A stretch of 64,000 bases of DNA from Squalus acanthias (GCA_030390025.1 CM059432.1:145080001-145144000), one strand, 5' to 3'. Positions 7,454 through 60,146 are shown, counted from the first letter of the stretch. Translations and numbers: made by a program. The notes: generated by a model not told the origin, from the sequence alone.

Positions 7454-7492
7454 CACAGTGACACGGGACTGTAGGGGGCCCTTACAAATACT
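7454..7492 (+). other. 23-RSS of V2
   Basis: CACAGTG + 23 nt + ACAAATACT. Confidence 0.9.
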
Positions 7493-25652: not shown

Positions 25653-26075
25653 ATGTTCTGGGTGATTGTGGCGTTATTTTTACCCTGTACGTGTTTCTAT
25701 TTTTTAAAATGTTATTTATGTCCATTCATTGTGCAGCAAATGTTCAGCATTTTCAAATCAGGTCATTTTGTGCATTTTTTCCAGGTGGGTGTTTTGCTCA
25801 GACTTTGACACAGACTCCAATATCGATTACAAAGGAGGCCACTAAAAGTGCCAGATTTCAGTGTGCGATCAGCGGAGGGAGCAACAGAATCCACTGGTAC
25901 CAGCAAAGGCCGGGTCAGGCGCCCGCCAGAATACTCTATTATGATAGCAGCGCCATTCGGGATCCGGAATTCAGCTCCCGGTTCAAAGCAGATAAGAAAG
26001 GCGATGTGTGCACTTTAATAATTAATGACATCGCGAAGAATGACACTGCCACTTATTACTGTGCCTATTGGGACA
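25653..26075 (+). CDS. TRGV: Intact TCR V segment V3: leader 25653-25686, V exon 25785-26075
   Basis: MFWVIVALFLP+GTACGT donor, TTCCAG acceptor; CGCFA|QTLTQ...FQC...IHWYQQ...TATYYCAYWD. Confidence 0.93.
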
Positions 26076-26114
26076 CACAGTGCTCAACAGAGGCAGAAAC
26101 CCTTGACAAAAACC
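26076..26114 (+). other. Canonical 23-RSS (V3)
   Basis: CACAGTG + 23 nt + ACAAAAACC. Confidence 0.95.
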
Positions 26115-29100
26115 CGGCGCGTTGCTTCGCTCCTCTTTCACTTACCACAGAAAAAAAAACTAGAACCAAATAGCGCCTTTAACGTAGTAAAACGTCCCAA
26201 GGCGCTTCACAGGAGCGATCATCAAACAACATTTGACAGCGAGCCAGACTTTAATCAAACTTTTATGTTTCAAATGTACAACAGAAATTCTGGCAGAGTT
26301 TCATATTTGTCCAGGGCTCAAAGGGTTAACATATGAGGATAAGTTGCATAAAAGTTGGCTTGTATTCCCCCTGAGTTACGAAGGTTGAGAGGCGACCTAC
26401 TTTAACCGAGATATTTAACATGATTAAGGGATTGGATAGATAACAGGGAAACTATTTCCTCTGGTGGGAGAGTCCAGAACCTTTAAAATTAGAGCCAGGC
26501 CGTTCAGGGGGTGATGTCAGGAAGCACTTCTTCACACAAAGGGTCGGGGAAATCTGGAACTCTCTCCCTCAAAAGGCCGTGGCTGCTGGGGGACAATTGG
26601 AGCTTTCAAGGCTGAGATTGATAGATTTCTGTTGGGTAAGGGTATCAAGGGATATGGAGCAAAGGAGAGTAATCAGATTGAACGGCTGAACAGGCTCGAG
26701 GGGCTGAATGGCCTCCTCCTGTTCCTACGATACACAATCAGGATAGACATAGTAGACATACAACCCATAACAGATGAGAAGGGTTTACCGGCCCCGGAAT
26801 GGATGGACAAGGGTTGAGGCAGAGCGGTGGTCTTGGATCCCTGCAACCTGCGGCAGTGGTCTCTTCCTCTTTGGTCATCTCCCAAGGCTGGTGGGGGTGT
26901 TAAGCTAAAGCTAGCATGAATCCACTCTGGGGAAGCACTTCCCCTCCCCAACCCCCGAGGAAGACCTTCCCCTCTCTGCAACGCCCCCCGCCCTCCGCGG
27001 CTGGGAAGCTCTTTCCCTCTCTGCCTATTTTTCCCTTTCAGCTGCCCGTTTATATACCTTATTTTGGGGGGTCAGTGGATACCTCACGTCAATCATTTGT
27101 TACCCATTCAATTGTCCAATTACAGGGGAATAAGTACCTATGGCAGATCCCTCCCAGACTCATGAGGTCATTCCTCTGCTTATCTCCTGTTTGGACATCT
27201 TGCACTTTCTCCTAGACAGTTTGTTTATCATAAGGATCCTTACTCGACCGCTTATCAGGCCTAGCTATGGCTGCATGGAGGCCTGTTTCTGCGTTCTGCC
27301 CTTGTAAACGACCTCAGTTCTTTGTGCAACTCCTTATCTGATATGATTGGTTCCTTCTGTGTCATCAGCTGAGCTAGGCAAAACCATTTCTTTTATAAAA
27401 CCATTATTTCTTTTACAATTCATAATTTCTTGCCATTCACGATTTCTTACAACACTAATCCAGGTCAAAATTAATTGACACTGGAAATATATGGGCGAAT
27501 AAATGAGAATCCCAGCACGATTTGTTAAAGGCAAATTGTGTGTAACTAACTTGATTGAGTTCCTTCATGAAGTAACATAGAGGGTTGACCAGGGTAGTGC
27601 GGTTGATGTTGTATATATGGGCTTTCAAAAGGCGTTTGATAAAGTACCATATAATAGATTTGTTAGCAAAATTGAAGCCCATGGGATTAAAGGGATAGTG
27701 ACTGCATGGATAAGAAATTGGCTAAGGGACAGAAAGCAGTGGTGAATGAAAACAAAAAATGGTGGAAATACTCAGCAGGTCAGGCAGCATCTGTGGAGAG
27801 AGAAACAGAGTTAACATTTCAGTTCAATGACCAATTTTCAATCCATGCCAGTATATTACCCCCAATCCCATGTGCTTTAACTTTGCACACTAACCTCTTA
27901 TGTGGGACTTTATCAAAGGCCTTTTGAAAATCCAAATACACCACATCCACTGGTTCTCCCTTATCTATTGTACCAGTTACATCCTCAAAAAACTCCAGTA
28001 GGTTTGTCAAACACAATTTCCCTTTCATAAATCCATGTTGAATTTGTCTAATCCCGTTGATATTTTCTAAGTGTCCTGTTATCACATCCTTTACAATAGA
28101 GTCTAGCATTTTCCCTACTATGATGTTAGGCTAACCGGTCTGTAGTTCCCTGTTTTCTCTCTCCCTCCTTTTTTAAATAGTGAGGTTACATTTGCCACCC
28201 TCCAATCTGCAGGAACTGTTCCATAATCTATAGAATTTTGGAAGATGACAACCAATGCATCCACTATTTCCATGGCTACCTCTTTTAGTACTCTGGGATG
28301 CAGATTATCAGTGCCTAGGGATTTATCGGCTTTCAGTCCCATTAATTTCTCCAGCACTATTTTTTTACTAATACTAATTTCCTTTAATTCCTCCTTCTCA
28401 CTGGACCCTTGGTTCCTTAGCATTTCTGGAAAGTTATTTGTGTCCTCTTCCGTGAAGACAGAACCAAAGTATTTGTTTAATTGCTCAGCCATTTCCTTGT
28501 TCCCCATTATAAATTCTCCCGTTTCTGACTGTAAGGGACCTACATTTGTCTTCAGTAATGTTTTTCTTTTTACCTACTTGTAGAAGCTTTTACAGTCCGC
28601 TTTTATGTTCTTTGCAAGTTGACTCTCATACCCGATTTCCCCCCTCTTAATCAATCCCTTGGTCCTTTATTGCTTAACTCTAAACTGCTCCCAATCCTCA
28701 GGCTTGCTACTTTTCTGGTAACTTGATATGACTCCTCTTTGGATCTAATTCTATCCTTAATTTATTTTGTTAGCCATGGTTGGCCAATTTTCCTTTTGTG
28801 TTTTTGCGCCAGAAAGGAATGTATAACTGTTGCAATTCATGCATTCATTCCTTAAATGTTAGCCATTGTCTATCCACCATCATGCCTTTTATTGAAGCTC
28901 CACAATCTATCATAGCCAACTCCCTCCTCATACCTTCGTAGTTTCCTTTGTTTAGATTTAGGACCCTAGTTTCGGATTGGATTACATCACTTTCCATCTT
29001 AATGAAGGTGTTCTCCAGGGGACCACTGCTCTTTCTGAGATATATTAATGACCTGGATCGTGCCATAATTTCAAAGTTTTCAGATGACAAAAAACTCAGA

Positions 29101-31595
29101 AATGTAGTAAACAGTGAGGAGGATAGTAACAGACTTCAGGAGGACATAGACAGACTGGTGAAACGGGCAGACACAAGGCAGATGAAATTTAATGCAGATA
29201 AGTGTGAAGTGATTCATTTTGGTAGGAAGAATCAGGAGAGGCAATATGAACTAAATGGTACAATTTTAAAGGGGGGGGGGAACAGAGAGACCTGGGAATG
29301 TATGTACACATGTCTTTGAAGGTGGCAGGACAAGTTGAGAAGGCTGTTAAAAAAGCATATGGGATCCTTGATGTTATAAATAGAGGCATAGAGTACAACA
29401 GAAAGGATGTTATGCTAAACTTTTATAAAACACAGCATAGGCCCCAAATTATTGTGGCCGATTCTGGGCACCACACTTTAAGAAGGATGTCAAGGCCTTA
29501 AAGAAGGTGCAAAGGAGATTTACTAGAACAGTAATAGGGATGAGGGACTTCAGTTACGTGGAGAGACTGGAGAAGCTGGGCTGTTCTCCTTTGAGCAGAG
29601 AAGGTTAAGGGGAGATTTAATAGAGATGTTCAAAATCATGAAGGGTTTTGATAAAATAAGAAGGAATAGTTTCCAGTGGCAGAAGGGTCCGTAACCAAAG
29701 GACACAGATTTAAGGTAATTGGCAAAAGAACCATGAGGGAAAAAAATTACACAGCATGTTGTTGTGATCTGGAATGCAATGCCTGTAAGGGTGGTGGAAG
29801 CAGATTCAATAATTTTCAAAATTGAATTGGATAAATACTTGAAGGGGAAAAATCTACAGTGCTATGGGGAAAGAGCAGGGGAGTAGGACTAATTGGATAG
29901 CTCTTTCAAAGAGCTGGCACAGGCACGATGGGCCAAATGGCATATATCTGTGCTGTAAGATTCTATGATGCATCAACAATTGGAATAGATGTACCATGCA
30001 TATCACAGTCTCTCCTCTTGAGGTTGCAGAGCCACAGTAACACACAGGGGGCACTCACCACAACCCCCACTAGTTGGATTATTTTCAAGACAGTGAGTAG
30101 CTCTGGATCCCCAGGTGAATCTGCAAGCAACACATTACTGGGAACAAAAATAAACTTTCATTTCAAAAGGCATGGGTTAATCAAGGAGAGCCAGCATGGA
30201 TTTGTTAAAGGTAAATCGTGTCTGACTAACTTGATTGAATTCTTTGATGAGGTAACAGAGACGGTTGATCAAGGTAGTGCAGTTGTGTATCTGGACTTTT
30301 GGAAAGCATTCCCTTTTGTTCACTCCTGGTGCAGAGACTCACCAGTTGGGAGCTCATATCTAGAAATCCTGTCTGGGCTGCCCATGGTTTTCCATCTATC
30401 AAAGTGAATGGGAATGCAAACAGGAAGTTACCTTCAAGTGTTTAGAAAGTGTCACGTGTCCAAATACCGATCAAAAACAACAACTTGCATTGATATTGCT
30501 CCTTGAGCAGGAAAACACGTCCCAAGTTGCTTACAGGAGCGTTATTATACACCTACCAGTCTTAATCAATTAGACAACATCATTGTCCATTGGTGTGGGA
30601 TCTTGGCTTAGTTGGCTTCTCCCTCCCCAATTCACAAGGACAGCTCTTCCCTTAACCACCTCTCCCCATCCACAAGGGCTCTCTCTCCCCTTAACCGCCA
30701 ACTCACCCCAACATAACAACAGAAAACGCTGGAAAACTCACCCCAACTGTTCAGAGCACGCACTCGCCTTGAGCACGATCCTTGGTGGCGGGTGCTCGCC
30801 ATAGTTCAGCGAGGTCTATCTGGTCACTTGCTGCAGCGTTTCATGCCCGGAGCAGCGGGATCTCAGAGCGGGGAGGAGGCCGCGGCGATGGAGCAGCATA
30901 GAGCGGGAGCGGCAACTTTCAGCGGGCAGCTTCTTAACGCGGAAACCCACACACACCGTGCCCAAGAACATGGAATGGGAGCTCGGGCAGGAGTTACCGA
31001 CCCGAACAGACCCTGCGCAGCTTAGCAGGAGCCCACACACACACACAGAGCTTTTACACTGGGGCGCTGTGGAGGAGGGAAGGGTTCGGTGGGAAAGTAA
31101 AAATCACAACAAAAATACCTTTAATTCAGATAAATGCGGGTTCAGAGCATCTACTTCCTTATCAAATGTAAATTCAAATATGTCAGGGATCTAACACTGG
31201 GGAGAGTGAAACAAATTCACTGTGAAGTTTGATCCAGTCTTGGGAGAAAGGTTTTCCTCCTCGCCCCTGTCTGACTGCACACATCTCCCAGCTGCTGCAA
31301 CCAAACAGAATAACTCGGCGCAATTAGTTTCTGATTTTAAAAGTGAGCAATCCTAAATTGAATTTTGAATGCACAATTTCCGCGAGTGTGAATGCAATGT
31401 GCGAGGTGACCATCGCACAGAGAGTAACTGACGGTCTCACATTTTATAATGTGGGAGGGGGGACTGTAAACTGGGCGGGTTTTATGCCGACAGGAAATTC
31501 GCAGCCTCGGCCTGATAGGGGAGGGGGACTCGGGTCCTTCACATTGTTATCAGTGGGGACTAACCGAGTAACGAGGGAGGCTTGGTCACTGCAGG

Positions 31596-32019
31596 ATGTT
31601 CTGGGTGATTGTGGCGTTATTTTTACCCTGTACGTGTTTCTATTTTTTAAAATGTTATTTATGTCCATTCATTGTGCAGCAAATGTTCAGCATTTTCAAA
31701 TCAGGTCATTTTGTGCATTTTTTCCCAGGTGGATGTTTTGCTCAGACTTTGACACAGACTCCAATATCGATTACAAAGGAGGCCACTAAAAGTGCCAGAT
31801 TTCAGTGTGCGATCAGCGGAGGGAGCAACATAATCCACTGGTACCAGCAAAGGCCGGGTCAGGCGCCCGCCAGAATACTCTATTATGATAGCAGCGCCAT
31901 TCGGGATCCGGAATTCAGCTCCCGGTTCAAAGCAGATAAGAAAGGCGATGTGTGCACTTTAATAATTAATGACATCGCGAAGAATGACACTGCCACTTAT
32001 TACTGTGCCTATTGGGACA
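31596..32019 (+). CDS. TRGV: Intact TCR V segment V4: leader 31596-31629, V exon 31729-32019
   Basis: As V3; CDR1 GGSNI. Confidence 0.93.
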
Positions 32020-32058
32020 CACAGTGCTCAACAGAGGCAGAAACCCTTGACAAAAACC
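32020..32058 (+). other. Canonical 23-RSS (V4)
   Basis: CACAGTG + 23 nt + ACAAAAACC. Confidence 0.95.
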
Positions 32059-35000
32059 CGGCGCGTTGCTTCGCTCCTCTTTCACTTACCACAGAAAAAA
32101 AAACTAGAACCAAATAGCGCCTTTAACGTAGTAAAACGTCCCAAGGCGCTTCACAGGAGCGATCATCAAACAACATTTGACAGCGAGCCAGACTTTAATC
32201 AAACTTTTATGTTTCAAATGTACAACAGAAATTCTGGCAGAGTTTCATATTTGTCCAGGGCTCAAAGGGTTAACATATGAGGATAAGTTGCATAAAAGTT
32301 GGCTTGTATTCCCCCTGAGTTACGAAGGTTGAGAGGCGACCTACTTTAACCGAGATATTTAACATGATTAAGGGATTGGATAGATAACAGGGAAACTATT
32401 TCCTCTGGTGGGAGAGTCCAGAACCTTTAAAATTAGAGCCAGGCCGTTCAGGGGGTGATGTCAGGAAGCACTTCTTCACACAAAGGGTCGGGGAAATCTG
32501 GAACTCTCTCCCTCAAAAGGCCGTGGCTGCTGGGGGACAATTGGAGCTTTCAAGGCTGAGATTGATAGATTTCTGTTGGGTAAGGGTATCAAGGGATATG
32601 GAGCAAAGGAGAGTAATCAGATTGAACGGCTGAACAGGCTCGAGGGGCTGAATGGCCTCCTCCTGTTCCTACGATACACAATCAGGATAGACATAGTAGA
32701 CATACAACCCATAACAGATGAGAAGGGTTTACCGGCCCCGGAATGGATGGACAAGGGTTGAGGCAGAGCGGTGGTCTTGGATCCCTGCAACCTGCGGCAG
32801 TGGTCTCTTCCTCTTTGGTCATCTCCCAAGGCTGGTGGGGGTGTTAAGCTAAAGCTAGCATGAATCCACTCTGGGGAAGCACTTCCCCTCCCCAACCCCC
32901 GAGGAAGACCTTCCCCTCTCTGCAACGCCCCCCGCCCTCCGCGGCTGGGAAGCTCTTTCCCTCTCTGCCTATTTTTCCCTTTCAGCTGCCCGTTTATATA
33001 CCTTATTTTGGGGGGTCAGTGGATACCTCACGTCAATCATTTGTTACCCATTCAATTGTCCAATTACAGGGGAATAAGTACCTATGGCAGATCCCTCCCA
33101 GACTCATGAGGTCATTCCTCTGCTTATCTCCTGTTTGGACATCTTGCACTTTCTCCTAGACAGTTTGTTTATCATAAGGATCCTTACTCGACCGCTTATC
33201 AGGCCTAGCTATGGCTGCATGGAGGCCTGTTTCTGCGTTCTGCCCTTGTAAACGACCTCAGTTCTTTGTGCAACTCCTTATCTGATATGATTGGTTCCTT
33301 CTGTGTCATCAGCTGAGCTAGGCAAAACCATTTCTTTTATAAAACCATTATTTCTTTTACAATTCATAATTTCTTGCCATTCACGATTTCTTACAACACT
33401 AATCCAGGTCAAAATTAATTGACACTGGAAATATATGGGCGAATAAATGAGAATCCCAGCACGATTTGTTAAAGGCAAATTGTGTGTAACTAACTTGATT
33501 GAGTTCCTTCATGAAGTAACATAGAGGGTTGACCAGGGTAGTGCGGTTGATGTTGTATATATGGGCTTTCAAAAGGCGTTTGATAAAGTACCATATAATA
33601 GATTTGTTAGCAAAATTGAAGCCCATGGGATTAAAGGGATAGTGACTGCATGGATAAGAAATTGGCTAAGGGACAGAAAGCAGTGGTGAATGAAAACAAA
33701 AAATGGTGGAAATACTCAGCAGGTCAGGCAGCATCTGTGGAGAGAGAAACAGAGTTAACATTTCAGTTCAATGACCAATTTTCAATCCATGCCAGTATAT
33801 TACCCCCAATCCCATGTGCTTTAACTTTGCACACTAACCTCTTATGTGGGACTTTATCAAAGGCCTTTTGAAAATCCAAATACACCACATCCACTGGTTC
33901 TCCCTTATCTATTGTACCAGTTACATCCTCAAAAAACTCCAGTAGGTTTGTCAAACACAATTTCCCTTTCATAAATCCATGTTGAATTTGTCTAATCCCG
34001 TTGATATTTTCTAAGTGTCCTGTTATCACATCCTTTACAATAGAGTCTAGCATTTTCCCTACTATGATGTTAGGCTAACCGGTCTGTAGTTCCCTGTTTT
34101 CTCTCTCCCTCCTTTTTTAAATAGTGAGGTTACATTTGCCACCCTCCAATCTGCAGGAACTGTTCCATAATCTATAGAATTTTGGAAGATGACAACCAAT
34201 GCATCCACTATTTCCATGGCTACCTCTTTTAGTACTCTGGGATGCAGATTATCAGTGCCTAGGGATTTATCGGCTTTCAGTCCCATTAATTTCTCCAGCA
34301 CTATTTTTTTACTAATACTAATTTCCTTTAATTCCTCCTTCTCACTGGACCCTTGGTTCCTTAGCATTTCTGGAAAGTTATTTGTGTCCTCTTCCGTGAA
34401 GACAGAACCAAAGTATTTGTTTAATTGCTCAGCCATTTCCTTGTTCCCCATTATAAATTCTCCCGTTTCTGACTGTAAGGGACCTACATTTGTCTTCAGT
34501 AATGTTTTTCTTTTTACCTACTTGTAGAAGCTTTTACAGTCCGCTTTTATGTTCTTTGCAAGTTGACTCTCATACCCGATTTCCCCCCTCTTAATCAATC
34601 CCTTGGTCCTTTATTGCTTAACTCTAAACTGCTCCCAATCCTCAGGCTTGCTACTTTTCTGGTAACTTGATATGACTCCTCTTTGGATCTAATTCTATCC
34701 TTAATTTATTTTGTTAGCCATGGTTGGCCAATTTTCCTTTTGTGTTTTTGCGCCAGAAAGGAATGTATAACTGTTGCAATTCATGCATTCATTCCTTAAA
34801 TGTTAGCCATTGTCTATCCACCATCATGCCTTTTATTGAAGCTCCACAATCTATCATAGCCAACTCCCTCCTCATACCTTCGTAGTTTCCTTTGTTTAGA
34901 TTTAGGACCCTAGTTTCGGATTGGATTACATCACTTTCCATCTTAATGAAGGTGTTCTCCAGGGGACCACTGCTCTTTCTGAGATATATTAATGACCTGG

Positions 35001-37537
35001 ATCGTGCCATAATTTCAAAGTTTTCAGATGACAAAAAACTCAGAAATGTAGTAAACAGTGAGGAGGATAGTAACAGACTTCAGGAGGACATAGACAGACT
35101 GGTGAAACGGGCAGACACAAGGCAGATGAAATTTAATGCAGATAAGTGTGAAGTGATTCATTTTGGTAGGAAGAATCAGGAGAGGCAATATGAACTAAAT
35201 GGTACAATTTTAAAGGGGGGGGGGAACAGAGAGACCTGGGAATGTATGTACACATGTCTTTGAAGGTGGCAGGACAAGTTGAGAAGGCTGTTAAAAAAGC
35301 ATATGGGATCCTTGATGTTATAAATAGAGGCATAGAGTACAACAGAAAGGATGTTATGCTAAACTTTTATAAAACACAGCATAGGCCCCAAATTATTGTG
35401 GCCGATTCTGGGCACCACACTTTAAGAAGGATGTCAAGGCCTTAAAGAAGGTGCAAAGGAGATTTACTAGAACAGTAATAGGGATGAGGGACTTCAGTTA
35501 CGTGGAGAGACTGGAGAAGCTGGGCTGTTCTCCTTTGAGCAGAGAAGGTTAAGGGGAGATTTAATAGAGATGTTCAAAATCATGAAGGGTTTTGATAAAA
35601 TAAGAAGGAATAGTTTCCAGTGGCAGAAGGGTCCGTAACCAAAGGACACAGATTTAAGGTAATTGGCAAAAGAACCATGAGGGAAAAAAATTACACAGCA
35701 TGTTGTTGTGATCTGGAATGCAATGCCTGTAAGGGTGGTGGAAGCAGATTCAATAATTTTCAAAATTGAATTGGATAAATACTTGAAGGGGAAAAATCTA
35801 CAGTGCTATGGGGAAAGAGCAGGGGAGTAGGACTAATTGGATAGCTCTTTCAAAGAGCTGGCACAGGCACGATGGGCCAAATGGCATATATCTGTGCTGT
35901 AAGATTCTATGATGCATCAACAATTGGAATAGATGTACCATGCATATCACAGTCTCTCCTCTTGAGGTTGCAGAGCCACAGTAACACACAGGGGGCACTC
36001 ACCACAACCCCCACTAGTTGGATTATTTTCAAGACAGTGAGTAGCTCTGGATCCCCAGGTGAATCTGCAAGCAACACATTACTGGGAACAAAAATAAACT
36101 TTCATTTCAAAAGGCATGGGTTAATCAAGGAGAGCCAGCATGGATTTGTTAAAGGTAAATCGTGTCTGACTAACTTGATTGAATTCTTTGATGAGGTAAC
36201 AGAGACGGTTGATCAAGGTAGTGCAGTTGTGTATCTGGACTTTTGGAAAGCATTCCCTTTTGTTCACTCCTGGTGCAGAGACTCACCAGTTGGGAGCTCA
36301 TATCTAGAAATCCTGTCTGGGCTGCCCATGGTTTTCCATCTATCAAAGTGAATGGGAATGCAAACAGGAAGTTACCTTCAAGTGTTTAGAAAGTGTCACG
36401 TGTCCAAATACCGATCAAAAACAACAACTTGCATTGATATTGCTCCTTGAGCAGGAAAACACGTCCCAAGTTGCTTACAGGAGCGTTATTATACACCTAC
36501 CAGTCTTAATCAATTAGACAACATCATTGTCCATTGGTGTGGGATCTTGGCTTAGTTGGCTTCTCCCTCCCCAATTCACAAGGACAGCTCTTCCCTTAAC
36601 CACCTCTCCCCATCCACAAGGGCTCTCTCTCCCCTTAACCGCCAACTCACCCAACATAACAACAGAAAACGCTGGAAAACTCACCCAACTGTTCAGAGCA
36701 CGCACTCGCCTTGAGCACGATCCTTGGTGGCGGGTGCTCGCCATAGTTCAGCGAGGTCTATCTGGTCACTTGCTGCAGCGTTTCATGCCCGGAGCAGCGG
36801 GATCTCAGAGCGGGGAGGAGGCCGCGGCGATGGAGCAGCATAGAGCGGGAGCGGCAACTTTCAGCGGGCAGCTTCTTAACGCGGAAACCCACACACACCG
36901 TGCCCAAGAACATGGAATGGGAGCTCGGGCAGGAGTTACCGACCCGAACAGACCCTGCGCAGCTTAGCAGGAGCCCACACACACACACAGAGCTTTTACA
37001 CTGGGGCGCTGTGGAGGAGGGAAGGGTTCGGTGGGAAAGTAAAAATCACAACAAAAATACCTTTAATTCAGATAAATGCGGGTTCAGAGCATCTACTTCC
37101 TTATCAAATGTAAATTCAAATATGTCAGGGATCTAACACTGGGGAGAGTGAAACAAATTCACTGTGAAGTTTGATCCAGTCTTGGGAGAAAGGTTTTCCT
37201 CCTCGCCCCTGTCTGACTGCACACATCTCCCAGCTGCTGCAACCAAACAGAATAACTCGGCGCAATTAGTTTCTGATTTTAAAAGTGAGCAATCCTAAAT
37301 TGAATTTTGAATGCACAATTTCCGCGAGTATGAAAGCAATGTGCGAGGTGACTATCGCACAGAGAGTAACTAACGGTCTCACATTTTATAATGTGGGAGG
37401 GAGGACTGTAAACTGGGCGGGTTTTATGCCGACAGGAAATTCGCAGCCTCGGCCTGATAGGGGAGGGGGACTCGGGTCCTTCACATTGTTATCAGTGGGG
37501 ACTAACCGAGTAACGAGGGAGACTTGGTCTCTGCAGG

Positions 37538-37960
37538 ATGTTCTGGGTGATTGTGGCGTTATTTTTACCCTGTACGTGTTTCTATTTTTTAAAATGTTAT
37601 TTATGTCCATTCATTGTGCAGCAAATGTTCAGCATTTTCAAATCAGGTCATTTTGTGCATTTTTTCCAGGTGGGTGTTTTGCTCAGACTTTGACACAGAC
37701 TCCAATATCGATTACAAAGGTGGCCACTAAAATTGCCAGATTTCAGTGTGCGATCAGTGGAGGGAGGAACACAATCCACTGGTACCAACAAAGGCCGGGT
37801 CAGGCGCCCGCCAGAATACTCTATTATGGAAACAGCGCCATTCGGGATCCGGAATTCAGCTCCCGGTTCAACGCAGATAAGGAAGACGATGTGTGCACTT
37901 TAATAATTAATAACATCGCGAAGAATGACACTGCCACGTATTACTGTGCCTATTGGGACA
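37538..37960 (+). CDS. TRGV: Intact TCR V segment V5: leader 37538-37571, V exon 37670-37960
   Basis: As V3; CDR1 GGRNT, CDR2 YGNS, HV4 NADKEDD. Confidence 0.93.
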
Positions 37961-37999
37961 CACAGTGCTCAACAGAGGCAGAAACCCTTGACAAAAACC
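37961..37999 (+). other. Canonical 23-RSS (V5)
   Basis: CACAGTG + 23 nt + ACAAAAACC. Confidence 0.95.
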
Positions 38000-44435: not shown

Positions 44436-44858
44436 ATGTTCTGGGTGATTGTGGCGTTATTTTTACCCTGTACGTGTTTCTATTTTTTAAAATGTTATTT
44501 ATGTCCATTCATTGTGCAGCAAATGTTCAGCATTTTCAAATCAGGTCATTTTGTGCATTTTTTCCAGGTGGGTGTTTTGCTCAGACTTTGACACAGACTC
44601 CAATATCGATTACAAAGGTGGCCACTAAAATTGCCAGATTTCAGTGTGCGTTCAGTGGAGGGAGCAACACAATCCACTGGTACCAGCAAAGGCCGGGTCA
44701 GGCGCCCGCCAGAATACTCTATTATGATAGCAGCGCCATTCGGGATCCGGAATTCAGCTCCCGGTTCAACGCAGCTAAGAAAGGCGATGTGTGCACTTTA
44801 ATAATTAATGACATCGTGAAGAATGACACTGCCACTTATTACTGTGCCTATTGGGACA
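44436..44858 (+). CDS. TRGV: Intact TCR V segment V6: leader 44436-44469, V exon 44568-44858
   Basis: As V3; CAFSGGSNT, YDSS, NAAKKGD. Confidence 0.93.
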
Positions 44859-44897
44859 CACAGTGCTCAACAGAGGCAGAAACCCTTGACAAAAACC
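44859..44897 (+). other. Canonical 23-RSS (V6)
   Basis: CACAGTG + 23 nt + ACAAAAACC. Confidence 0.95.
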
Positions 44898-47800: not shown

Positions 47801-50800
47801 CTAACCTCTTATGTGGGACTTTATCAAAGGCCTTCTGAAAATCCAAATGCACCACATCCACTGGCTCTCCCTTATCTATTCTACCAATTACATCCTCAAA
47901 AAACTCCAGTAGGTTTGTCAAACACGATTTCCCTTTCATAAATCCATGTTGACTTTGTCTAATCCCGTTGATATTTTCTAAGTGTCCTGTTATCACATCC
48001 TTTATAATAGAGTCTAGCATTTTCCCTACTATGATGTTAGGCTAACCGGTCTGTAGTTCCCTGCTTTCTCTCTCCCTCCTTTTTTAAATAGTGGGGTTAC
48101 ATTTGCCACCCTCCAATCTGCAGGAACTGTCCATAATCTATAGAATTTTGGAAGATGACAACCAATGCATCCACTATTTCCATGGCTACCTCTTTTAGTA
48201 CTGTGGGATGCAGATTATCAGGGCCTAGGGATTTATTGGTTTTCAGTCCCATTAATTTCTCCAGCACTATTTTTTTACTAATACTAATTTCCTTTAATTC
48301 CTCCTTCTCACTGGACCCTTGGTTCCTTAGCATTTCTGGAAAGTTATTTGTGTCTCTTCAGTGAAGACAGAACCACAGTATTTGTTTAATTGCTCAGCCA
48401 TTTCCTTGTTCCCCATTATAAATTCTCCCGTTTCTGACTGTAAGGGACCTACATTTGTCTTCACTAATCTTTCTCTTTTTACATACTTGTAGAAGCTTTT
48501 ACAGTCCACTTTTGTGTTCCTTGCAAGTTGACTCTCATACCCGATTTTTCCCCTCTTAATCAATCCCTTGGTCCTTTTTTGCTGAACTCTAAACTGCTCC
48601 CAATCCTCAGGCTTGCTACTTTTTCTGGTAACTTGATATGACTCCTCTTTGGATCTAATTCTATCCTTAATTTCTTTTGTTAGCCATGGTTGGGCCACTT
48701 TTCCTTTTGTGTTTTTGCACCAGAAAGGAATGTATAACTGTTGCAATTCATGCATTCGTTCCTTAAATATTATCCATTGCCTATCCACCATCATGCCTTT
48801 TAATGAAGCTCCCCAATCTATCATAGCCAACTCCCTCCTCATACCTTCGTTGTTTCCTTTGTTTAGATTTAGGGCCCTAGTTTAGAATTGGACTACTTCA
48901 CTTTCCATCATAATGAAGGTGTTCTCCAGGGGACCACTGCTCTTTTTGAGATATATTAATGACCTGGATCGTGCCATAATTTCAAAGTTTTCAGATGACA
49001 AAAAACTCAGAAATGTAGTAAACAGTGAGGAGGATAGTAACAGACTTCAGGAGGACATAGACAGACTGGTGAAACGGGCAGACACAAGGCAGATGAAATT
49101 TAATGCAGATAAGTGTGAAGTGATTCATTTTGGTAGGAAGAATCAGGAGAGGCAATATGAACTAAATGGTACAATTTTAAAGGGGGGGGAACAGAGAGAC
49201 CTGGGAATGTATGTACACATGTCTTTGAAGGTGGCAGGACAAGTTGAGAAGGCTGTTAAAAAAGCATATGGGATCCTTGATGTTATAAATAGAGGCATAG
49301 AGTACAACAGAAAGGATGTTATGCTAAACTTTTATAAAACACAGCATAGGCCCCAAATTATTGTGGCCGATTCTGGGCACCACACTTTAAGAAGGATGTC
49401 AAGGCCTTAAAGAAGGTGCAAAGGAGATTTACTAGAACAGTAATAGGGATGAGGGACTTCAGTTACGTGGAGAGACTGGAGAAGCTGGGCTGTTCTCCTT
49501 CGAGCAGAGAAGGTTAAGGGGAGATTTAATAGAGATGTTCAAAATCATGAAGGGTTTTGATAAAATAAGAAGGAATAGTTTCCAGTGGCAGAAGGGTCCG
49601 TAACCAGAGGACACAGATTTAAGGTAATTGGCAAAAGAACCATGAGGGAAAAAAATTACACAGCATGTTGTTGTGATCTGGAATGCAATGCCTGTAAGGG
49701 TGGTGGAAGCAGATTCAATAATTTTCAAAATTGAATTGGATAAATACTTGAAGGGGAAAAATCTACAGTGCTATGGGGAAAGAGCAGGGGAGTAGGACTA
49801 ATTGGATAGCTCTTTCAAAGAGCTGGCACAGGCACGATGGGCCAAATGGCATATATCTGTGCTGTAAGATTCTATGATGCATCAACAATTGGAATAGATG
49901 TACCATGCATATCACAGTCTCTCCTCTTGAGCTTTGCAGAGCCACAGTAACACACAGGGGGCACTCACCACAACCCCCACTAGTTGGACTATTTTCAAGA
50001 CAGTGAGTAGCTCTGGATCCCCAGGTGAATCTGTTAGCAACACATTACTGGGAACAAAAATAAACTTTCATTTCGAAAGGCATGGGTTAATCAAGGAGAG
50101 CCAGCATGGATTTGTTAAAGGTAAATCGTGTCTGACTAACTTGATTGAATTCTTTGATGAGGTAACAGAGACGGTTGATCAAGGTAGTGCAGTTGTGTAT
50201 CTGGACTTTTGGAAAGCATTCCCTTTTGTTCACTCCTGGTGCAGAGCCTCACCAGTTGGGAGCTCATATCTAGAAATCCTGTCTGGGCTGCCCATGGTTT
50301 TCCATCTATCAAAGTGAATGGGAATGCAAACAGGAAGTTACCTTCAAGTGTTTAGAAAGTGTCACGTGTCCAAATACCGATCAAAAACAACAACTTGCAT
50401 TGATATTGCTCCTTGAGCAGGAAAACACGTCCCAAGTTGCTTACAGGAGCGTTATTATACACCTACCAGTCTTAATCAATTAGACAACATCATTGCCCAT
50501 TGGTGTGGGATCTTGGCGAAGTTGGCTTCTCCCTCCCCAATTCACAAGGACAGCTCTTCCCTTAACCACCTCTCCCCATCCACAAGGGCTCTCTCTCCCC
50601 TTAACCGCCAACTCCCCCAACTGTTCAGAGCACGCACTCGCCTTGAGCACGATCCTTGGTGGCGGGTGCTCGCCATAGTTCAGCGAGGTCTATCTGGTCA
50701 CTTGCTGCAGCGTTTCATGCCCGGAGCAGCGGGATCTCAGAGCGGGGAGGAGGCCGCGGCGATGGAGCAGCATAGAGCGGGAGCGGCAACTTTCAGCGGG

Positions 50801-51469
50801 CAGCTTCTGAACGCGGAAACCCACACACACCGTGCCCAAGAACATGGAATGGGAGCTCGGGCAGGAGTTACCGACCCGAACAGACCCTGCTCAGCTAAGC
50901 AGGAGCCCACACACACACACAGAGCTTTTACACTGGGGCGCTGTGGAGGAGGGAAGGGTTCGGTGGGAAAGTAAAAATCACAACAAAAATACCTTTAATT
51001 CAGATAAATGCGGGTTCAGAGCATCTACTTCCTTGTCAAATGTAAATTCAAATATGTCAGGGATCTAACACTGGGGAGAGTGAAACAAATTCACTGTGAA
51101 GTTTGATCCAGTCTTGGGAGAAAGGTTTTCCTCCTCGCCCCTGTCTGACTGCACACATCTCCCAGCTGCTGCAACCAAACAGGATAACTCGGCGCAATTC
51201 GTTTCTGATTTTAAAAGTGAGCAATCCTAAATTGAATTTTGAATTCACAATTTCCGCGAGTGTGAAAGCAATGTGCGAGGTGACTATCGCACAGAGAGTA
51301 ACTAACGGTCTCACATTTTATAATGTGGGAGGGGGGACTGTAAACTGGGCGGGTTTTATGCCGACAGGAAATTCGCAGCCTCGGCCTGATAGGGGAGGGG
51401 GACTCGGGTCCTTCACATTGTTATCAGTGGGGACTAACCGAGTAACGAGGGAGACTTGGTCACTGCACG

Positions 51470-51892
51470 ATGTTCTGGGTGATTGTGGTGTTATTTTTAC
51501 CCTGTACGTGTTTCTATTTTTTAAAATGTTATTTATGTCCATTCATTGTGCAGCAAATGTTCAGCATTTTCAAATCAGGTCATTTTGTGCATTTTTTCCA
51601 GGTGGGTGTTTTGCTCAGACTTTGACACAGACTCCAATATCGATTACAAAGGTGGCCACTAAAAGTGCCAGATTTCAGTGTGCGTTCAGTGGAGGGAGCA
51701 ACACAATCCACTGGTACCAGCAAAGGCCGGGTCAGGCGCCCGCCAGAATACTCTATTATGGAAACAGCGCCATTCGGGATCCGGAATTCAGCTCCCGGTT
51801 CAACGCAGATAAGGAAGACGATGTGTGCACTTTAATAATTAATAACATCGCGAAGAATGACACTGCCACGTATTACTGTGCCTATTGGGACA
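51470..51892 (+). CDS. TRGV: Intact TCR V segment V7: leader 51470-51503, V exon 51602-51892
   Basis: As V3; leader MFWVIVVLFLP, CAFSGGSNT, YGNS, NADKEDD. Confidence 0.93.
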
Positions 51893-51931
51893 CACAGTGC
51901 TCAACAGAGGCAGAAACCCTTGACAAAAACC
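51893..51931 (+). other. Canonical 23-RSS (V7)
   Basis: CACAGTG + 23 nt + ACAAAAACC. Confidence 0.95.
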
Positions 51932-52400
51932 CGGCGCTTTGGCTCGCTCCTCTTTCACTTCCCACACAAGAAAAAACTAGAACCAAATAGCGCCTTTAAC
52001 GTAGTAAAACGTCCCAAGGCGCTTCACAGGAGCGATCATCAAACAACATTTGACACCGAGCCAGACTTTAATCAAACTTTTATGTTTCAAATGTACAACA
52101 GAAATTCTGGCAGAGTTTCATATTTGTCCAGGGCTCAAAGGGTGAACATATGAGGATAAGTTGCATAAAAGTTGGCTTGTATTCCCCCCTGAGTTACGAA
52201 GGTTGAGAGGCGACCTAATTTAATCGATATATTTAACTTGATTAAGGGATTGGATAGGGAGAGTCCAGAACCTTTAAAATTAGCGCCAGGCCGTTCAGGG
52301 GGTGATGTCAGGAAGCACTTCTTCGCACAAAGGGTCGGGGAAATCTGGAACTCTCTCCCTCAAAAGGCCGTGGCTGCTGGGGGACAATTGGAGCTTTCAA

Positions 52401-52802
52401 CATAGAAACATAGAAACTTGGAGCAGGAGTAGGCCATTCGGCCCGTCGAGCCTGCTCCACCATTCAATACGATCATGGCTGATCATCCAAATCCAGTGCC
52501 CTGTCCCTGCTTTCTCACACAGAATCCCCATCGAGCCTGCACCAACACATATCCCACCCTATCCCTGTAACCCCACGTATTTAATTCCCCCCTAACACTA
52601 AAGGTCAATTTATCATAGCCAAATCAACCTAACCAGCACATTTTTGGACTGTGGGAGGAAACCGGAGCACCCGGAGAAAACCCACGCAGACACGGGGAGA
52701 ATGTGCAAACTCCACACAGACAGTCACCCGAGGCCAGGTTCGAACCTGGGTTCCTGGCGCTGTGAGGCAGCAGTGCTAACCACTATGCCACCGTGTTGCC
52801 CT
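52401..52802 (-). mobile_element. Full-length tRNA-derived V-SINE (HE1-like) with CR1-derived 3' tail
   Basis: Minus strand GGGCAACACGGTGGCATAGTGGTTAGC (A box), GGTTCGAACC (B box), V-domain-like core (GTGGGTTTTCTCCGGGTGCTCCGGTTTCCTCCCACA), CR1-like tail; absent from other units. Confidence 0.85.
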
Positions 52803-55795
52803 AGGCTGAGATTGATAGATTTCTGTTGGGTAAGGGTATCAAGGGATATGGAGCAAAGGCGAGTAATCAGATTGAACGGCGGAACAGCCTCGAGGGGCTG
52901 AATGGCCTCCTCCTGTTCCTACGATACACAATCAGGATAGACATAGTAGACATACAACCCATAACAGATGAGAACGGTTTACCGGCCCCGGAATGAATGG
53001 ACAAGGGTTGAGGCAGAGCGGTGGTCTTGGATCCCTGCAGCCTGCGGCAGTGGTCTCTTCCTCTTTGGTCATCTCCCAAGGCTGGTGGGGGTGTTAAGCT
53101 GAAGCTAGCATGAATCCACTCCGGGGAAGCCCTTCCCCTCCCCAACCCCCGAGAAAGCCCTTCCCATCTCTGCACCCCCCCTCACCCCCTCCGGCCGGGA
53201 AGCTCTTTCCTTCTCTGCCTGTTTTTCCCTTTCAGCTGCCCGTTTATATACCTTATTTTGGGGGGTCAGTGGATACCTCACGTCAATCATTTGTTACCCA
53301 TTCAATTGTCCAATTACAGGGGAATAAGTACCTATGGCAGATCCCTCCCAGACTCATGAGGTCATTCCTCTGCTTATCTCCTGTTTGGACATCTTGCACT
53401 TTCTCCGAGACAGTTTGTTTATCATAAGGATCCTTACTCGACCGCTTATCAGGCCTAGCTATGGCTGCATGAAGGCCTGTTTCTGCGTTATGCCCTTGTA
53501 AACAACCTCAGTTCTTTGTGCAACTCCTTATCTGATATGATTGGTTTCTTCTGTGTCATCAGCTTATCCTGGCTGCTGAGCTAGGCAAAACCATTTCTTT
53601 TATAAAAACCATTATTTCTTTTACAATTCATAATTTCTTGCCATTCACGATTTCTGACAACACTAATCCAGGTCAAAATTAATTGACACTGGAAATATAT
53701 GGGCAAATAAATGAGAATCCCAGCACGATTTGTTAAAGGCAAATTGTGTGTAACTAACTTGATTGAGTTCCTTGATGAAGTAACATAGAGGGTTGACCAG
53801 GGTAGTGCGGTTGATGTTGTATATATGGGCTTTCAAAAGGCGTTTGATAAAGTACCATATAATAGATTTGTTAGCAAAATTGAAGCCCATGGGATTAAAG
53901 GGATAGTGACTGCATGGATAAGAAATTGGCTAAGGGACAGAAAGCAGTGGTGAATGAAAACAGAAAATGGTGGAAATACTCAGCAGGTCAGGCAGCATCT
54001 GTGGAGAGAGAAACAGAGTTAACATTTCAGTTCAATGACCATTCATCAGAACTGATGTTGAATGGTTGTTTTTCAGACTGGAGGGAAGTGTGCAGTGGTA
54101 GAAACATAGAAACATAGAAAAATAGGAGCAGGAGTAGGTCATTCGGCCCTTCGAGCCTGCTCCGCCATTCAATATGATCATGGCTGATCCTCTATCTCAA
54201 TACCATATTCCCGCTCTCTCCCCATACCCCTTGACACCTTTTGCGTCTAGAAATCGATCTATCTTCTTCTTAAATATATTCAGTGACTTGGCCTCCACAG
54301 CCTTCTGTAGTAGAGAATTCCACAGGTTCACCACCCTCTGAGTGAAGAAATTTCTCCTCATCTCAGTCCTAAATGTCCTACCCCATATCCTGAGATTGTG
54401 ACCCCTCATTCTAGAGCCCCCAGCCAGGGGAAAGATCCTCCCTGCATCCAGTCTGTCTAGCCCTGTCAGAATATTATACGTTTCAATGAGATCCCCTCTC
54501 ATTCTTCTAAACTCTAGTGAATACAGGCCTATTCAACCCAATCTCTCCTCATACAACAGTTGTGCCATCCCAGGAATCAGTCTGGTGAACCTTCGCTGCA
54601 CTCCCTCTACGCAAGTATATCCTTTCTTAGGTAAGGAGACCAAAACTGCACGCAGTACTCCAGGTGTGGTCTCACCAAGGCCCTGTAAAACTGTAGTAAG
54701 ACATTCTTGCTCCTTTACTCAAATCCTCTTGCAATGAAGGCCAACATACCATTTGCCTTCCTAACTGCTTGCTGCACCTGCATGTTCGCTTTCAGTGACT
54801 GGTGTACAAGGACACTCAGGTCCCTTTGTACATCAACATTTCCCAATCTATCACCATTTAAATAATACTCTGCCTTTCTGTTTTTCCTACCGAAGTGGAT
54901 AACTTCACATTTATCCACGTTATACTGCATCTGCCATGTATTTGCCCACTCACTCAACTTGTCTAAATCGCCTTGAAGCCTCTTTGTATCCTCCTCACAA
55001 CTCACAGTCCCACCTAGTTTTGTGTCATCAGCAAACTTGGAAATATTACATTTGGTTCCCTCATCCAAATCATTGATATATATTGTGAATAGCTGGGCCC
55101 AAGCACGGATCCCTGCAGTACCCCACTAGTCATCACCTGCCACCCCGAAAAAGACCCATTTATTCCTACTCTCTGTTTCCTGTCTGTTATCCAATTTACA
55201 ATCCATGCCAGTATATTACCCCCAATCCCATGTGCTTTAATTTTGCACACTAACCTCTTATGTGGAACTATATCAAAGGCCTTCTGAAAATCCAAATACA
55301 CCACATCCACTGGTTCTCCCTTATCTATTGTACCAGTTACATCCTCAAAAAACTCCAGTAGGTTTGTCAAACACGATTTCCCTTTCATAAATCCATGTTG
55401 AATTTGTCTAATCCCGTTAATATTTCCCAAGTGTCCTGTTATCACATCCTTTTTAATAGAGTCTAGCATTTTCCCTACTATGATGTTAGGCTAACCGGTC
55501 TGTAGTTCCCTGTTTTCTCTCTCCCTCCTTTTTTAAATAGTGAGGTTACATTTGCCACCCTCCAATCTGCAGGAACTGTTCCATAATCTATAGAATTTTG
55601 GAAGATGACAACCAATGCATCCACTATTTCCATGGCTACCTCTTTTAGTACTCTGGGATGCAGAATATCAGTGCCTAGGGATTTATCGGCTTTCAGTCCC
55701 ATTAATTTCTCCAGCACTATTTTTTTACTAATACTAATTTCCTTTAATTCCTCCTTCTCACTAGACCCTTGGTTCCTTAGCATTTCTGGAACGTT

Positions 55796-56561
55796 GGCCC
55801 GAAAATTAAAGCTAATACGCGAGAGTACGCATTGTGTACTCTCGCGTATTAGATTCCAAATTGCCGGTTTCCTGCATGCACTGCGCATGCGCGGGAAACC
55901 GGCACTTCGTGAATTGAAAAGGGGGCGGTTCCTAAGTGAACCGCGTGCGCACTACAGGTTGTGCGCACGCAGTGCACTTAGTTTTTTTTTCAGCTTTGAA
56001 CGCGCAGGTAAGTGGTGAAGATTTTACACATTATGAAAGCAGGCGTAGGACCCCCTTTTAACAAGGTAAGTAGTTAATTAAGTGTTATTTTAAAATTTTT
56101 TCAACAGGTTTATCTTTTTTAGAGACTTTAAAGAAAGGTAAGTTTATTTTTATAACTTTTAAAAAGATTTTTAATTTTTTCAAAAATTTAATTTTTTATT
56201 TAAAGTGGTTAATTTATTTAACTATACTTATTTTATTAATGTGATGGCTTTTTAAAAAAAAATTAATTGAGGTTTAGCTGTTCTTCTGGGGGATTGTAGT
56301 ATTCATAGCGTTGACAGCTCTTGCCGTCAAAACTATGAATGAAAGATGGTGTGCTGCCAATGGCTCTAACTGAATCACGTGATCCCAGAGCTCGCACGAA
56401 CTAATTGCGCCTCTGGGATATGCACACACTACGCGGTTGCAACAAGAAGAGGCTCTGAAACTAAAGTCCGTGTGGGCCCCAAACAAAAAGGTAGGCGCGG
56501 AGTGCGATATCGCGGGGAATCCTTACCCCCGCGGGAACCAACCCTGTTTAATTTCTGGGCC
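55796..56561. mobile_element. Harbinger-like MITE (766 bp), independent insertion
   Basis: TIR GGCCCGAAAATTAAA/TTTAATTTCTGGGCC, 3-bp TSD GTT; homologous to 14818-15561 but at a different site. Confidence 0.85.
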
Positions 56562-59500
56562 GTTATTTGTGTCCTGTTCCGTGAAGACATTTGTTTAATT
56601 GCTCAGCCATTTCCTTGTTCCCCATTATAAATTCTCCCGTTTCTGAATGTAAGGGACCTACATTTGTCTTCACTAATCTTTTTCTTTTTACACACTTGTA
56701 GAAGCTTTTACAGTCCGCTTTTATGTTCCTTGCAAGTTGACTCTCATACTCGATTTTTCCCCTCTTAATCAATCCCTTGGTCCTTTATTGCTGAACTCTA
56801 AACTGCTACCAATCCTCAGGCTTGCTACTTTTTCTGGTAACTTGATATGACTCCTCTTTGGATCTAATTCTATCCTTAATTTCTTTTGTTAGCCATGGTT
56901 GGGCCACTTTTCCTTTTGTGTTTTTGCGCCAGTAAGGAATGTATAACTGTTGCAATTCATGCATTCGTTCCTTAAATGTTAGCCATTGCCTATCCACCAT
57001 CATGCCATTTAATGAAGCTCCACAATCTATCATAGCCAACTCCCTCCTCATACCTTTGTAGTTTCCTTTGTTTAGATTTAGGGCCCTAGTTTTGGATTGG
57101 ATTACATCACTTTCCATCTTAATGAAGGTGTTCTCCAGGGGACCACTGCTCTTTTTGATATATATTAATGACCTGGATCGTGCCATAATTTCAAAGCTTT
57201 CAGATGACAAAAAACTCAGAAATGTAGTAAACAGTGAGGAGGATAGTAACAGACTTCAGGAGGACATAGACAGACTGGTGAAACGGGCAGACACAAGGCA
57301 GATGAAATTTAATGCAGAGAAGTGTGAAGTGATTCATTTTGGTAGGAAGAATGAGGAGAGGCAATATGAACTAAATGGTACAATTTTAAAGGGGGGGGGG
57401 GAACAGAGAGACCTGGGAGTGTATGTACACATGTCTTTGAAGGTGGCAGGACAAGTTGAGAAGGCTGTTAAAAAAGCATATGGGATCCTTGATGTTATAA
57501 ATAGAGGCATAGAGTACAACAGAAAGGATGTTATGCTAAACTTTTATAAAACACAGCATAGGCCCCAAATTATTGTGGCCAATTCTAGGCACCACACTTT
57601 AAGAAGGATGTCAAGGCCTTAAAGAAGGTGCAAAGGAGATTTACTAGAACAGTAATAGGGATGAGGGACTTCAGTTACGTGGAGAGACTGGAGAAGCTGG
57701 GCTGTTCTCCTTCGAGCAGAGAAGGTTAAGGGGAGATTTAATAGAGATGTTCAAAATCAAGAAGTGTTTTGATAAAATAAGGAATAGTTTCCAGTGGCAG
57801 AAGGGTCCGTAACCAGAGGCCACAGATTTAAGGTAATTGGCAAAAGAACCATGAGGGAAAAAAATTACACAGCATGTTGTTGTGATCTGGAATGCAATGC
57901 CTGTAAGGGTGGTGGAAGCAGATTCAATAATTTTCAAAATTGAATTGGATAAATACTTGAAGGGGAAAAATCTACAGTGCTATGGGGAAAGAGCAGGGGA
58001 GTAGGACTAATTGGATAGCTCTTTCAAAGAGCTGGCACAGGCACGATGGGCCAAATGGCATATATCTGTGCTGTAAGATTCTATGATGCATCAACAATTG
58101 GAATAGATGTACCATGCATATCACAGTCTCTCCTCTTGAGCTTTGCAGAGCCACAGTAACACACAGGAGGCACTCACCACAACCCCCACTAGTTGGACTA
58201 TTTTCAAGACAGTGGGTAGCTCTGGATCCCCAGGTGAATCTGTTAGCAACACATTACTGGGAACAAAAATAAACTTTCATTTCGAAAGGCATGGGTTAAA
58301 TCAAGGAGAGCCAGCATGGATTTGTTAAAGGTAAATCGTGTCTGACTAACTTGATTGAATTATTTGATGAGGTAACAGAGACGGTTGATCAAGGTAGTGC
58401 TGTTGTGTATCTGGACTTTTGGAAAGCATTCCCTTTTGTTCACTCCTGGTGCAGAGACTCACCAGTTGGGAGCTCATATCTAGAAATCCTGTCTGGGCTG
58501 CCCATGGTTTTCCATCTATCAAAGTGAATGGGAATGCAAACAGGAAGTTACCTTCAAGGGTTTAGAAAGTGTCACGTGTCCAAATACCGATCAAAAACAA
58601 CAACTTGCATTGATATTGCTCCTTGAGCAGGAAAACACGTCCCAAGTTGCTTACAGGAGCGTTATTATACACCTACCAGTCTTAATCAATTAGACAACAT
58701 CATTGCCCATTGGTGTGGGATCTTGGCTTAGTTGGCTTCTCCCTCCCCAATTCACAAGGACAGCTCTTCCCTTAACCACCTCTCCCCATCCACAAGGGCT
58801 CTCTGTCCCCTTAACCGCCAACTCCCCCAACTGTTCAGAGCACGCACTCGCCTTGAGCACGATCCTTGGTGGCGGGTGCTCGCCATAGTTCAGCGAGGTC
58901 TATCTGGTCACTTGCTGCAGCGTTTCATGCCCGGAGCAGCGGGATCTCAGAGCGGGGAGGAGGCCGCGGCGATGGAGCAGCATAGAGCGGGAGCGGCAAC
59001 TTTCAGCGGGCAGCTTCTGAACGCGGAAACCCACACACACCGTGCCCAAGAACATGGAATGGGAGCTCGGGCAGGAGTTACCGACCCGAACAGACCCTGC
59101 TCAGCTTAGCAGGAGCCCACACACACACACACAGAGCTTTTACACTGGGGCGCTGTGGAGGAGGGAAGGGTTCGGTGGGAAAGTAAAAATCACAACAAAA
59201 ATACCTTTAATTCAGATAAATGCGGGTTCAGAGCATCTACTTCCTTGTCAAATGTAAATTCAAATATGTCAGGGATCTAACACTGGGGAGAGTGAAACAA
59301 ATTCACTGTGAAGTTTGATCCAGTCTTGGGAGAAAGGTTTTCCTCCTCGCCCCTGTCTGACTGCACACATCTCCCAGCTGCTGCAACCAAACAGGATAAC
59401 TCGGCGCAATTCGTTTCTGATTTTAAAAGTGAGCAATCCTAAATTGAATTTTGAATTAACAATTTCCGCGATTGTGAAAGCAATGTGCGAGGTGACTATC

Positions 59501-59681
59501 GCACAGAGAGTAACTAACGGTCTCACATTTTATAATGTGGGAGGGGGGACTGTAAACTGGGCGGGTTTTATGCCGACAGGAAATTCGCAGCCTCGGCCTG
59601 ATAGGGGAGGGGGACTCGGGTCCTTCACATTGTTATCAGTGGGGACTAACCGAGTAACGAGGGAGACTTGGTCACTGCACG

Positions 59682-60107
59682 ATGTTCTGGGTGATTGTGG
59701 TGTTATTTTTACCCTGTACGTGTTTCTATTTTTTTTAAATGTTATTTATGTCCATTCATTGTGCAGCAAATGTTCAGCATTTTCAAATCAGGTCATTTTG
59801 TGCATTTTTTCCCAGGTGGGTGTTTTGCTCAGACTTTGACACAGACTCCAATATCGATTACAAAGGTGGCCACTAAAAGTGCCAGATTTCAGTGTGCGAT
59901 CAGTGGAGGGAGCAACACAATCCACTGGTACCAACAAAGGCCGGGTCAGGCGCCCGCCAGAATACTCTATTATGGAAACAGCGCCATTCGGGATCCGGAA
60001 TTCAGCTCCCGGTTCAACGCAGATAAGGAAGACGATGTGTGCACTTTAATAATTAATGACATCGCGAAGAATGACACTGCCACGTATTACTGTGCCTATT
60101 GGGACAG
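59682..60107 (+). CDS. TRGV: Intact TCR V segment V8: leader 59682-59715, V exon 59816-60107
   Basis: As V3; YGNS, NADKEDD; coding end one nt longer (TGGGACAG). Confidence 0.93.
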
Positions 60108-60146
60108 CACAGTGCTCAACAGAGGCAGAAACCCTTGACAAAAACC
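60108..60146 (+). other. Canonical 23-RSS (V8)
   Basis: CACAGTG + 23 nt + ACAAAAACC. Confidence 0.95.

Follow-up and report, generated by a model that had tools for sequence, protein, structure and literature searches.

The window, a stretch of 64,000 nucleotides of shark DNA, carries six closely related V genes, most likely T-cell receptor gamma (TRG) genes, and these belong to a locus that extends well beyond it on the same contig. The analysis covered 384 kb of this contig, reaching 120 kb upstream of the window and 200 kb downstream of it. From 5′ to 3′, the locus consists of one broken V gene, a single V gene, an eight-copy V family, five single V genes, a J cluster, one constant (C) gene, and an inverted gene encoding a MENTAL domain (Table 1). 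This amounts to one broken V gene and 14 intact-looking V genes with a 23-RSS, the latter spanning about 106 kb. Positions beyond 64,000 carry the window count on along the contig (position on G000:C8 minus 145,080,000). The sole run of N in the 384 kb, 500 letters long, lies about 70.4-70.9 kb upstream of the window start (L025).

The eight members of the family are built to one plan. Each has a leader exon of 34 nt, then an intron of 98-100 nt with GT..AG borders, and then a V exon of 291-292 nt that is open, carries both cysteines and the tryptophan, and falls into the Pfam family V-set. A 39-nt RSS (canonical heptamer, 23-nt spacer, and canonical nonamer) follows, identical across the family. 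A genome search with the family V returned nine matches, eight of them full length at 97-100%, all on contig C8. An initial sequence-only reading of the window had proposed the recent expansion of one TRGV family to at least six intact, near-identical copies sharing an identical canonical 23-RSS. Six copies do lie within the window and two more stand just 3′ of it; leader, splice sites, frame, and canonical 23-RSS are intact in 8/8 (broken copies, 0/8), and the same 39-nt signal is found at all of them. "Near-identical" translates to 2-16 base differences per pair of V exons, or 94.5-99.3% identity (mean paralogue difference 3.7%), and "recent" holds in a relative sense only, with flank divergence of 0-2.9% between units in a slow-mutating lineage. 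The V exon identity, head-to-tail units, and shared flanks make the copies one multi-member TRGV subgroup, for which the threshold quoted in PMC8493715 is >75% nucleotide identity. Mobile elements are found in and around the array. The LTR retrotransposon in Table 1 has 200-base LTRs that are 97.5% alike and a single 1,325-aa ORF with protease, RT, RNase H, and integrase families. A 98.5% twin of this element lies about 204-208 kb from the window start.

Table 1. Features of the locus, in window coordinates continued along the contig.
Feature	Position	Strand	Remarks
Broken V gene	~2183..2610	+	leader and most of V exon; without second cysteine motif or RSS; most 5′ V found
LINE-type endonuclease/reverse-transcriptase fragment	3197-4036	-	
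Single V gene, other family	7014..7492	+	intact-looking; 23-RSS at 7454 with two nonamer mismatches
Pyrimidine-rich minisatellite and CT repeats	11478-12165		upstream of array
Eight-copy array	13629 to ~75098	+	from self-alignment, unit ends, and junction motif; reaches ~11 kb beyond window end
Junction motif	13629, 26732, 32676, 38620, 45520, 52926, 60767		once more past the window
LINE-type endonuclease/reverse-transcriptase fragment	16056-16940	-	part of repeated unit
Full-length LTR retrotransposon	17013..21462	-	in unit 1 only; passenger
V copy 1	25653..26114	+	ATG 25653; leader 25653-25686, intron, V exon 25785-26075; 23-RSS from 26076; Pfam V-set
4.8-kb perfect repeat	25888..30705	+	letter-for-letter the same as 31832-36649
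V copy 2	31596..32058	+	ATG 31596; RSS from 32020; V exon 2 differences from copy 1
V copy 3	37538..37999	+	ATG 37538; leader, V exon, RSS from 37961
V copy 4	44436..44897	+	ATG 44436; leader, V exon, RSS from 44859
V copy 5	51470..51931	+	ATG 51470; leader, V exon, RSS from 51893
V copy 6	59682..60146	+	ATG 59682; leader, V exon, RSS from 60108
V copy 7	66574-67036 (G000:C8:145146574-145147036)		3′ of window; intact
V copy 8	74027-74489 (G000:C8:145154027-145154489)		3′ of window; intact
Five single V genes	RSS at 75860, 80733, 85893, 106338, 113010		3′ of array
J cluster	122.4-126.2 kb		seven FGXG motifs
C1 exon	129973-130293		C1-set domain
Putative hinge exon	near 131.6 kb		identified by eye
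TM exon	near 134081-134214		one lysine
MENTAL-domain gene	172-176 kb	inverted	~38 kb beyond TM exon

The recombination signals are arranged as in a TRG locus, with a 23-RSS 3′ of each of the 14 V genes and a near-canonical 12-RSS 5′ of three J segments. Three further FGXG motifs in the cluster have a weaker RSS and a GT donor, and the seventh has neither. A loose search for D segments from the last V gene to the C exon gave no credible candidate, the sole RSS pair being poor (4+2 and 2+2 mismatches) and located 3′ of the J cluster. A single lysine in the transmembrane segment is expected of a TRG constant chain, and the constant gene here has this form, with a C1-set domain, a connecting peptide, and a TM segment with one lysine. 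None of 150 scored candidates for a second C exon was more than 40% alike. The genome contains two MENTAL genes, and a START search put that domain beside neither; a likeness in exon 1 makes the gene at 172-176 kb a candidate STARD3NL rather than STARD3. STARD3NL is reported to border TRG in mammals and alligator (PMC7349638). On the other side, 0/10 BAR matches (AMPH, the 5′ border of TRG) fell on this contig in an exon-wise search, which can miss AMPH. Of 17 near-length V homologues, two are named TCR gamma and one, a duck V, carries an automatic Ig name. In a 47-row tree, the family joins the other V genes of the locus and bird TCR gamma V genes with support of only 55/86, and it stands apart from 20/21 V rows of other loci or contigs. 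Together with this grouping, the J and C segments downstream, the single C with its lysine-bearing TM segment, the lack of a credible D, and the inverted MENTAL neighbour support the name TRGV given in the sequence-only reading.

Two side observations emerged from the same tree. A V gene from contig C23 falls inside the gamma V group on a long branch; it comes from L078 (G000:C23:8326455-8339595), where a V exon with a 23-RSS sits beside C1-type exons. Three of the single V genes of the locus (L043, L045, L044; G000:C8:145155564-145186332) are paired at support 100 with V domains from Heptranchias, Heterodontus, and Carcharodon; the gamma V families are thus old and common to sharks.

An assignment of these V genes to another locus, whether Ig light chain, TRA/TRD, or TRB, draws on database names. 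The TM exon is 72-86% alike to five shark V-J-C-TM chains from four species, and all five C-exon homologues have been named "Ig light chain-like" automatically. When a homologous chain was searched in the Atlas, TCR beta-like names stood among the best rows, the tree support is weak, and a PDB sequence search with V and C returned only antibodies among the best 60 rows (the TM exon had no match), a result that is uninformative on chain type. The architecture speaks otherwise. Shark Ig light-chain clusters are V-J-C miniclusters with a secreted-type C that lacks a TM exon, and the translocon layout of many V, few J, and one C with a one-lysine TM exon excludes them. The absence of a credible D, the small number of J segments, and the inverted MENTAL neighbour also argue against another locus, and in the tree the large V arrays of other contigs make up clades of their own. 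We regard this assignment as extremely improbable and the locus as very likely shark TRG.

The array itself is real. Eight units of 5.9-13.1 kb stand in tandem, each closed by one V gene and with unit-specific insertions, and flank divergence is 0.8-2.9% for all pairs other than copies 1 and 2. Across the flank alignment as a whole, divergence is 0.4-2.9%. Depth was raised to about 5-9 times the single-copy level in 2/2 public DNA runs labelled organism A that were compared. For run X1, contig depth over nonrepeat parts of the unit was 105-137 compared with 15.5-18.4 in adjacent single-copy DNA (~7.4x), and for run X2 it was 72-74 compared with 11.6-14.8 (~5.4x); these are contig depths, which collapsed variants lower, and not strict copy numbers. 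Two runs from other organisms (X9 and X12) covered the family region too patchily for copies to be counted. In single-copy DNA, runs X1 and X2 are 0.2-0.5% divergent from the assembly, and a silent CpG change at 25966, present in 0/8 assembled copies, appears at about half depth in both DNA runs and in one RNA-run contig. The two runs therefore seem to come from other individuals or from a very near relative, and the silent variant hints at array turnover between individuals.

An array that is largely an assembly artefact, made of stacked haplotypes or misjoined reads, would fit the step between copies 1 and 2. There, 4.8 kb are perfectly identical, and in the whole 5.9-kb segment the only differences are three gaps and, within the 5′ part of the V gene, three substitutions. 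A false 15-kb duplication has been documented in a chicken TRG assembly (PMC8493715), and the depth of X2 suggests about 5-6 copies rather than 8. The remaining unit pairs, however, differ by more than the runs differ from the assembly and carry unit-specific insertions, the window contains no N, and the raised depth recurs in both samples. The copy 1/2 step is thus a duplication of very young age or else a mistake of the assembly, and seven copies stand whichever holds, with at most one copy doubtful. The expansion is not a false duplication overall, and an artefact of that extent is very improbable.

The junctions between units suggest how the array began. One and the same join recurs at all seven internal junctions, and six bases are common to the two outer ends. 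Priming of the duplication by a long repeat at both ends was considered and is ruled out, as the outer ends share those six bases only. The simplest reading is a single duplication that was joined by microhomology and then amplified. The units have since become mosaics of one another. Among 127 informative sites, incompatibility of close pairs is 0.22 compared with 0.43 after shuffling, with 0/300 shuffles as low, and a minimum of 32 exchange intervals is required. Exchange between germline copies is seen in this site-compatibility pattern. Incompatible pairs make up 40/91 inside the V exon and 90/600 in flanks at like distance, which indicates that the V exon is where shuffling, or else parallel change, is most concentrated; such pairs lack independence, and recurrent mutation can look like exchange. 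Absolute dating was dropped because the rate reported for the epaulette shark (7e-10 per generation, PMC10587355) has a tenfold interval and because exchange resets divergence.

Variation within the V exon bears on whether selection has acted on the copies. Variable sites number 27/291 in the V exon and 281/4,709 in the flanks (rate 0.060), and a hand count divides the former into 21 replacement and 6 silent sites. Eight replacements lie in CDR1 and CDR2 where 1.4 are expected (p = 3.5e-5; Fisher p = 3.3e-4 for their concentration), six lie in the DE loop, and seven lie in the framework where 10.9 are expected, with CDR limits set by IMGT-style rules and DE-loop limits drawn post hoc. By this partition, pN is 0.134 in the loops and 0.016 in the framework, compared with a flank diversity of 0.020. 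For the whole V exon, pN (0.037) equals pS (0.038), so it is the loop partition that carries the signal of selection. Variable sites cluster outside genes as well, since 5/313 flank windows of 15 bases hold >=5 variable sites. The RSS has 0/38 variable columns where about 2.3 are expected at the flank rate. In the flanks, 34 merged gap events occur in 4,981 bases; in 323 coding bases there are no indels, compared with 1.1-2.2 expected (P(0) = 0.11-0.33). The contrast drawn earlier between intact genes and indel-rich surroundings is therefore true, although weak by itself. Flank changes are CpG-biased. Enrichment of AID hot spots at germline variable V sites was not significant (5/27 hot compared with 9/114 other C/G, p = 0.14), and a germline AID footprint is not claimed for that reason. 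Charge changes occur in CDR2 and the DE loop, which points to these loops as a candidate germline-encoded ligand contact. In mammals, HV4 and CDR2 of gamma chains are reported to bind butyrophilins (PMC7608190, PMC7348870).

Several of these numbers are also what neutral copy-number drift would give, that is, unequal crossing-over without benefit among copies too young to break. The absence of coding indels at P = 0.11-0.33 is compatible with the flank rate, overall pN/pS is ~1, and the depth ratios of the two samples differ (~7.4 and ~5.4) as a fluid copy number would have it. The concentration of replacements in CDR1/CDR2 without any framework excess fits drift poorly, as do the invariant RSS and the lack of any broken copy or coding indel, and we consider drift as the whole account unlikely. 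We instead hold it highly probable that this is a tandem TRGV array formed by one duplication and shaped by germline exchange and by diversifying selection on its loops. A single microhomology-joined duplication likely founded the array, unequal crossing-over and germline gene conversion likely multiplied and shuffled its units, and selection, to which we would attribute the clustering of replacements, likely keeps the ligand-facing loops diverse; the order of these events is as we infer it. Each copy would rearrange by RAG to a downstream J like any TRGV, and the array would thereby add germline variety to gamma chains and weight V usage toward the amplified family.

The sequence-only reading further suggested that such an array could mimic somatic hypermutation or supply donors for gene conversion. 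Two runs guessed to be RNA (X18 and X19) yielded five short, low-depth contigs of the family representing several haplotypes, and one X19 contig spans the spliced joint of leader and V exon (25686-25785, GT..AG). In one RNA-run contig (depth 3.45), three bases are changed in tandem and an AGCA motif is altered, in a form seen in 0/8 copies, and another is changed at a second AGCA motif. When the three-base tandem change was sought as a template with a loose motif in the 384 kb, none of the 8 hits fell inside a V gene. The changes fit untemplated hypermutation, although the contigs have depth <5 and derive from other individuals, and the changes may be errors or alleles. In nurse shark TCR alpha, a mutation frequency of 2.3% is reported, with tandem mutations at 41/81 in CDR and 73/192 in framework (PMC5931798). 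Adjacent differences make up 37/302 of the pairwise germline differences here, a share below that of tandem mutations in shark hypermutation. The paralogues differ by 3.7% with a CDR bias, which is comparable to 2.3%, and copies not known to the investigator would inflate hypermutation counts. The claim of mimicry is thus fair for this species, with the reservation that only 37/302 differences are adjacent, and it does not overturn the sandbar shark result, because the evidence for hypermutation there, as cited in PMC5931798, came from a locus sequenced in full. The confounder is already recognised in the field, given that the nurse shark authors are reported to have set aside near-identical germline alpha/delta V genes for this reason (PMC5931798). 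Those V genes are likewise highly similar but belong to another locus with an incomplete assembly.

The other suggestion, that upstream copies also template AID-driven somatic conversion of rearranged gamma V genes and that expressed diversity is partly templated, has a favorable geometry, with up to seven donors of 94.5-99.3% identity in cis and in the same orientation. The fine-scale shuffling densest in the V exon would fit, as would one RNA-run contig whose letter combination is found in 0/8 copies. That same combination occurs in an X2 DNA contig, however, and so may be germline or a collapsed path, and the three-base tandem change lacks a match in any V gene among its 8 loose hits. In conversion donor arrays of the bird or rabbit Ig type, upstream donors typically lack a working RSS or frame, whereas here 8/8 copies are intact with a canonical RSS, unlike an array of pseudogene donors. 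AID is reported to act on shark TCR gamma (PMC5931798), and a review mentions some evidence of conversion in shark V regions while describing shark tandem mutations as non-templated (PMC4279169). On balance, templating of this kind is distinctly improbable. A broader proposal, that the array is ligand-driven, variable in copy number, and diversified in CDR2 and DE/HV4, with upstream copies also serving as templates for AID conversion, we judge unlikely. If it is true, a T-cell receptor would undergo AID-driven gene conversion, and the literature matches listed contained no precedent for that.

Comparison with known systems clarifies what is new about this tandem TRGV array. The sandbar shark TRG locus, reportedly the subject of Chen et al. 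2009, likewise has one V cluster, one J cluster, one C, and several divergent V families. It is described as having five single-member V, three J, and one C (sandbar shark, Carcharhinus plumbeus; review PMC7349638), so the contrast with "about five V" drawn in the sequence-only reading was sound; here there are 14 intact-looking V genes, 8 of them in one family. Nurse shark TCR gamma likewise has more V genes than sandbar shark, with several to a family (9 V genes in 3 families, to which 69 clones were assigned; PMC5931798), but those V genes were predicted from cDNA, whereas here genomic DNA displays the paralogues, their junction, and their mosaic history. Chicken TRG, reported to have grown by tandem blocks (PMC8493715), shares with this array the tandem duplication, the highly similar TRGV paralogues, and the common non-coding flanks; its blocks hold several V genes each and pseudogenes, in contrast to one V gene per unit and 8/8 intact. 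Rabbit TRGV1 has eight members (PMC7349638). The expectation that a near-identical germline array would be unusual therefore fails among vertebrates at large. The matches listed, searched by titles and the starts of abstracts with most subscription literature outside them, did not include any amplified TRGV family described from a shark genome. Birth-and-death expansion of TRGV is thus known in chicken and rabbit and apparently new at the genomic level in a shark.

With one family amplified eightfold beside neighbouring families that are single, the picture of five V genes does not hold for shark TCR gamma in general. Because the paralogues differ by ~4% and do so with a bias toward the CDRs, any measurement of hypermutation in gamma chains of sharks requires the phased germline array. 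The array also supplies marked donors, so that templated and untemplated change in shark T cells becomes directly testable. Finally, the charge changes in the loops make germline-encoded ligand contact in cartilaginous fish worth testing.
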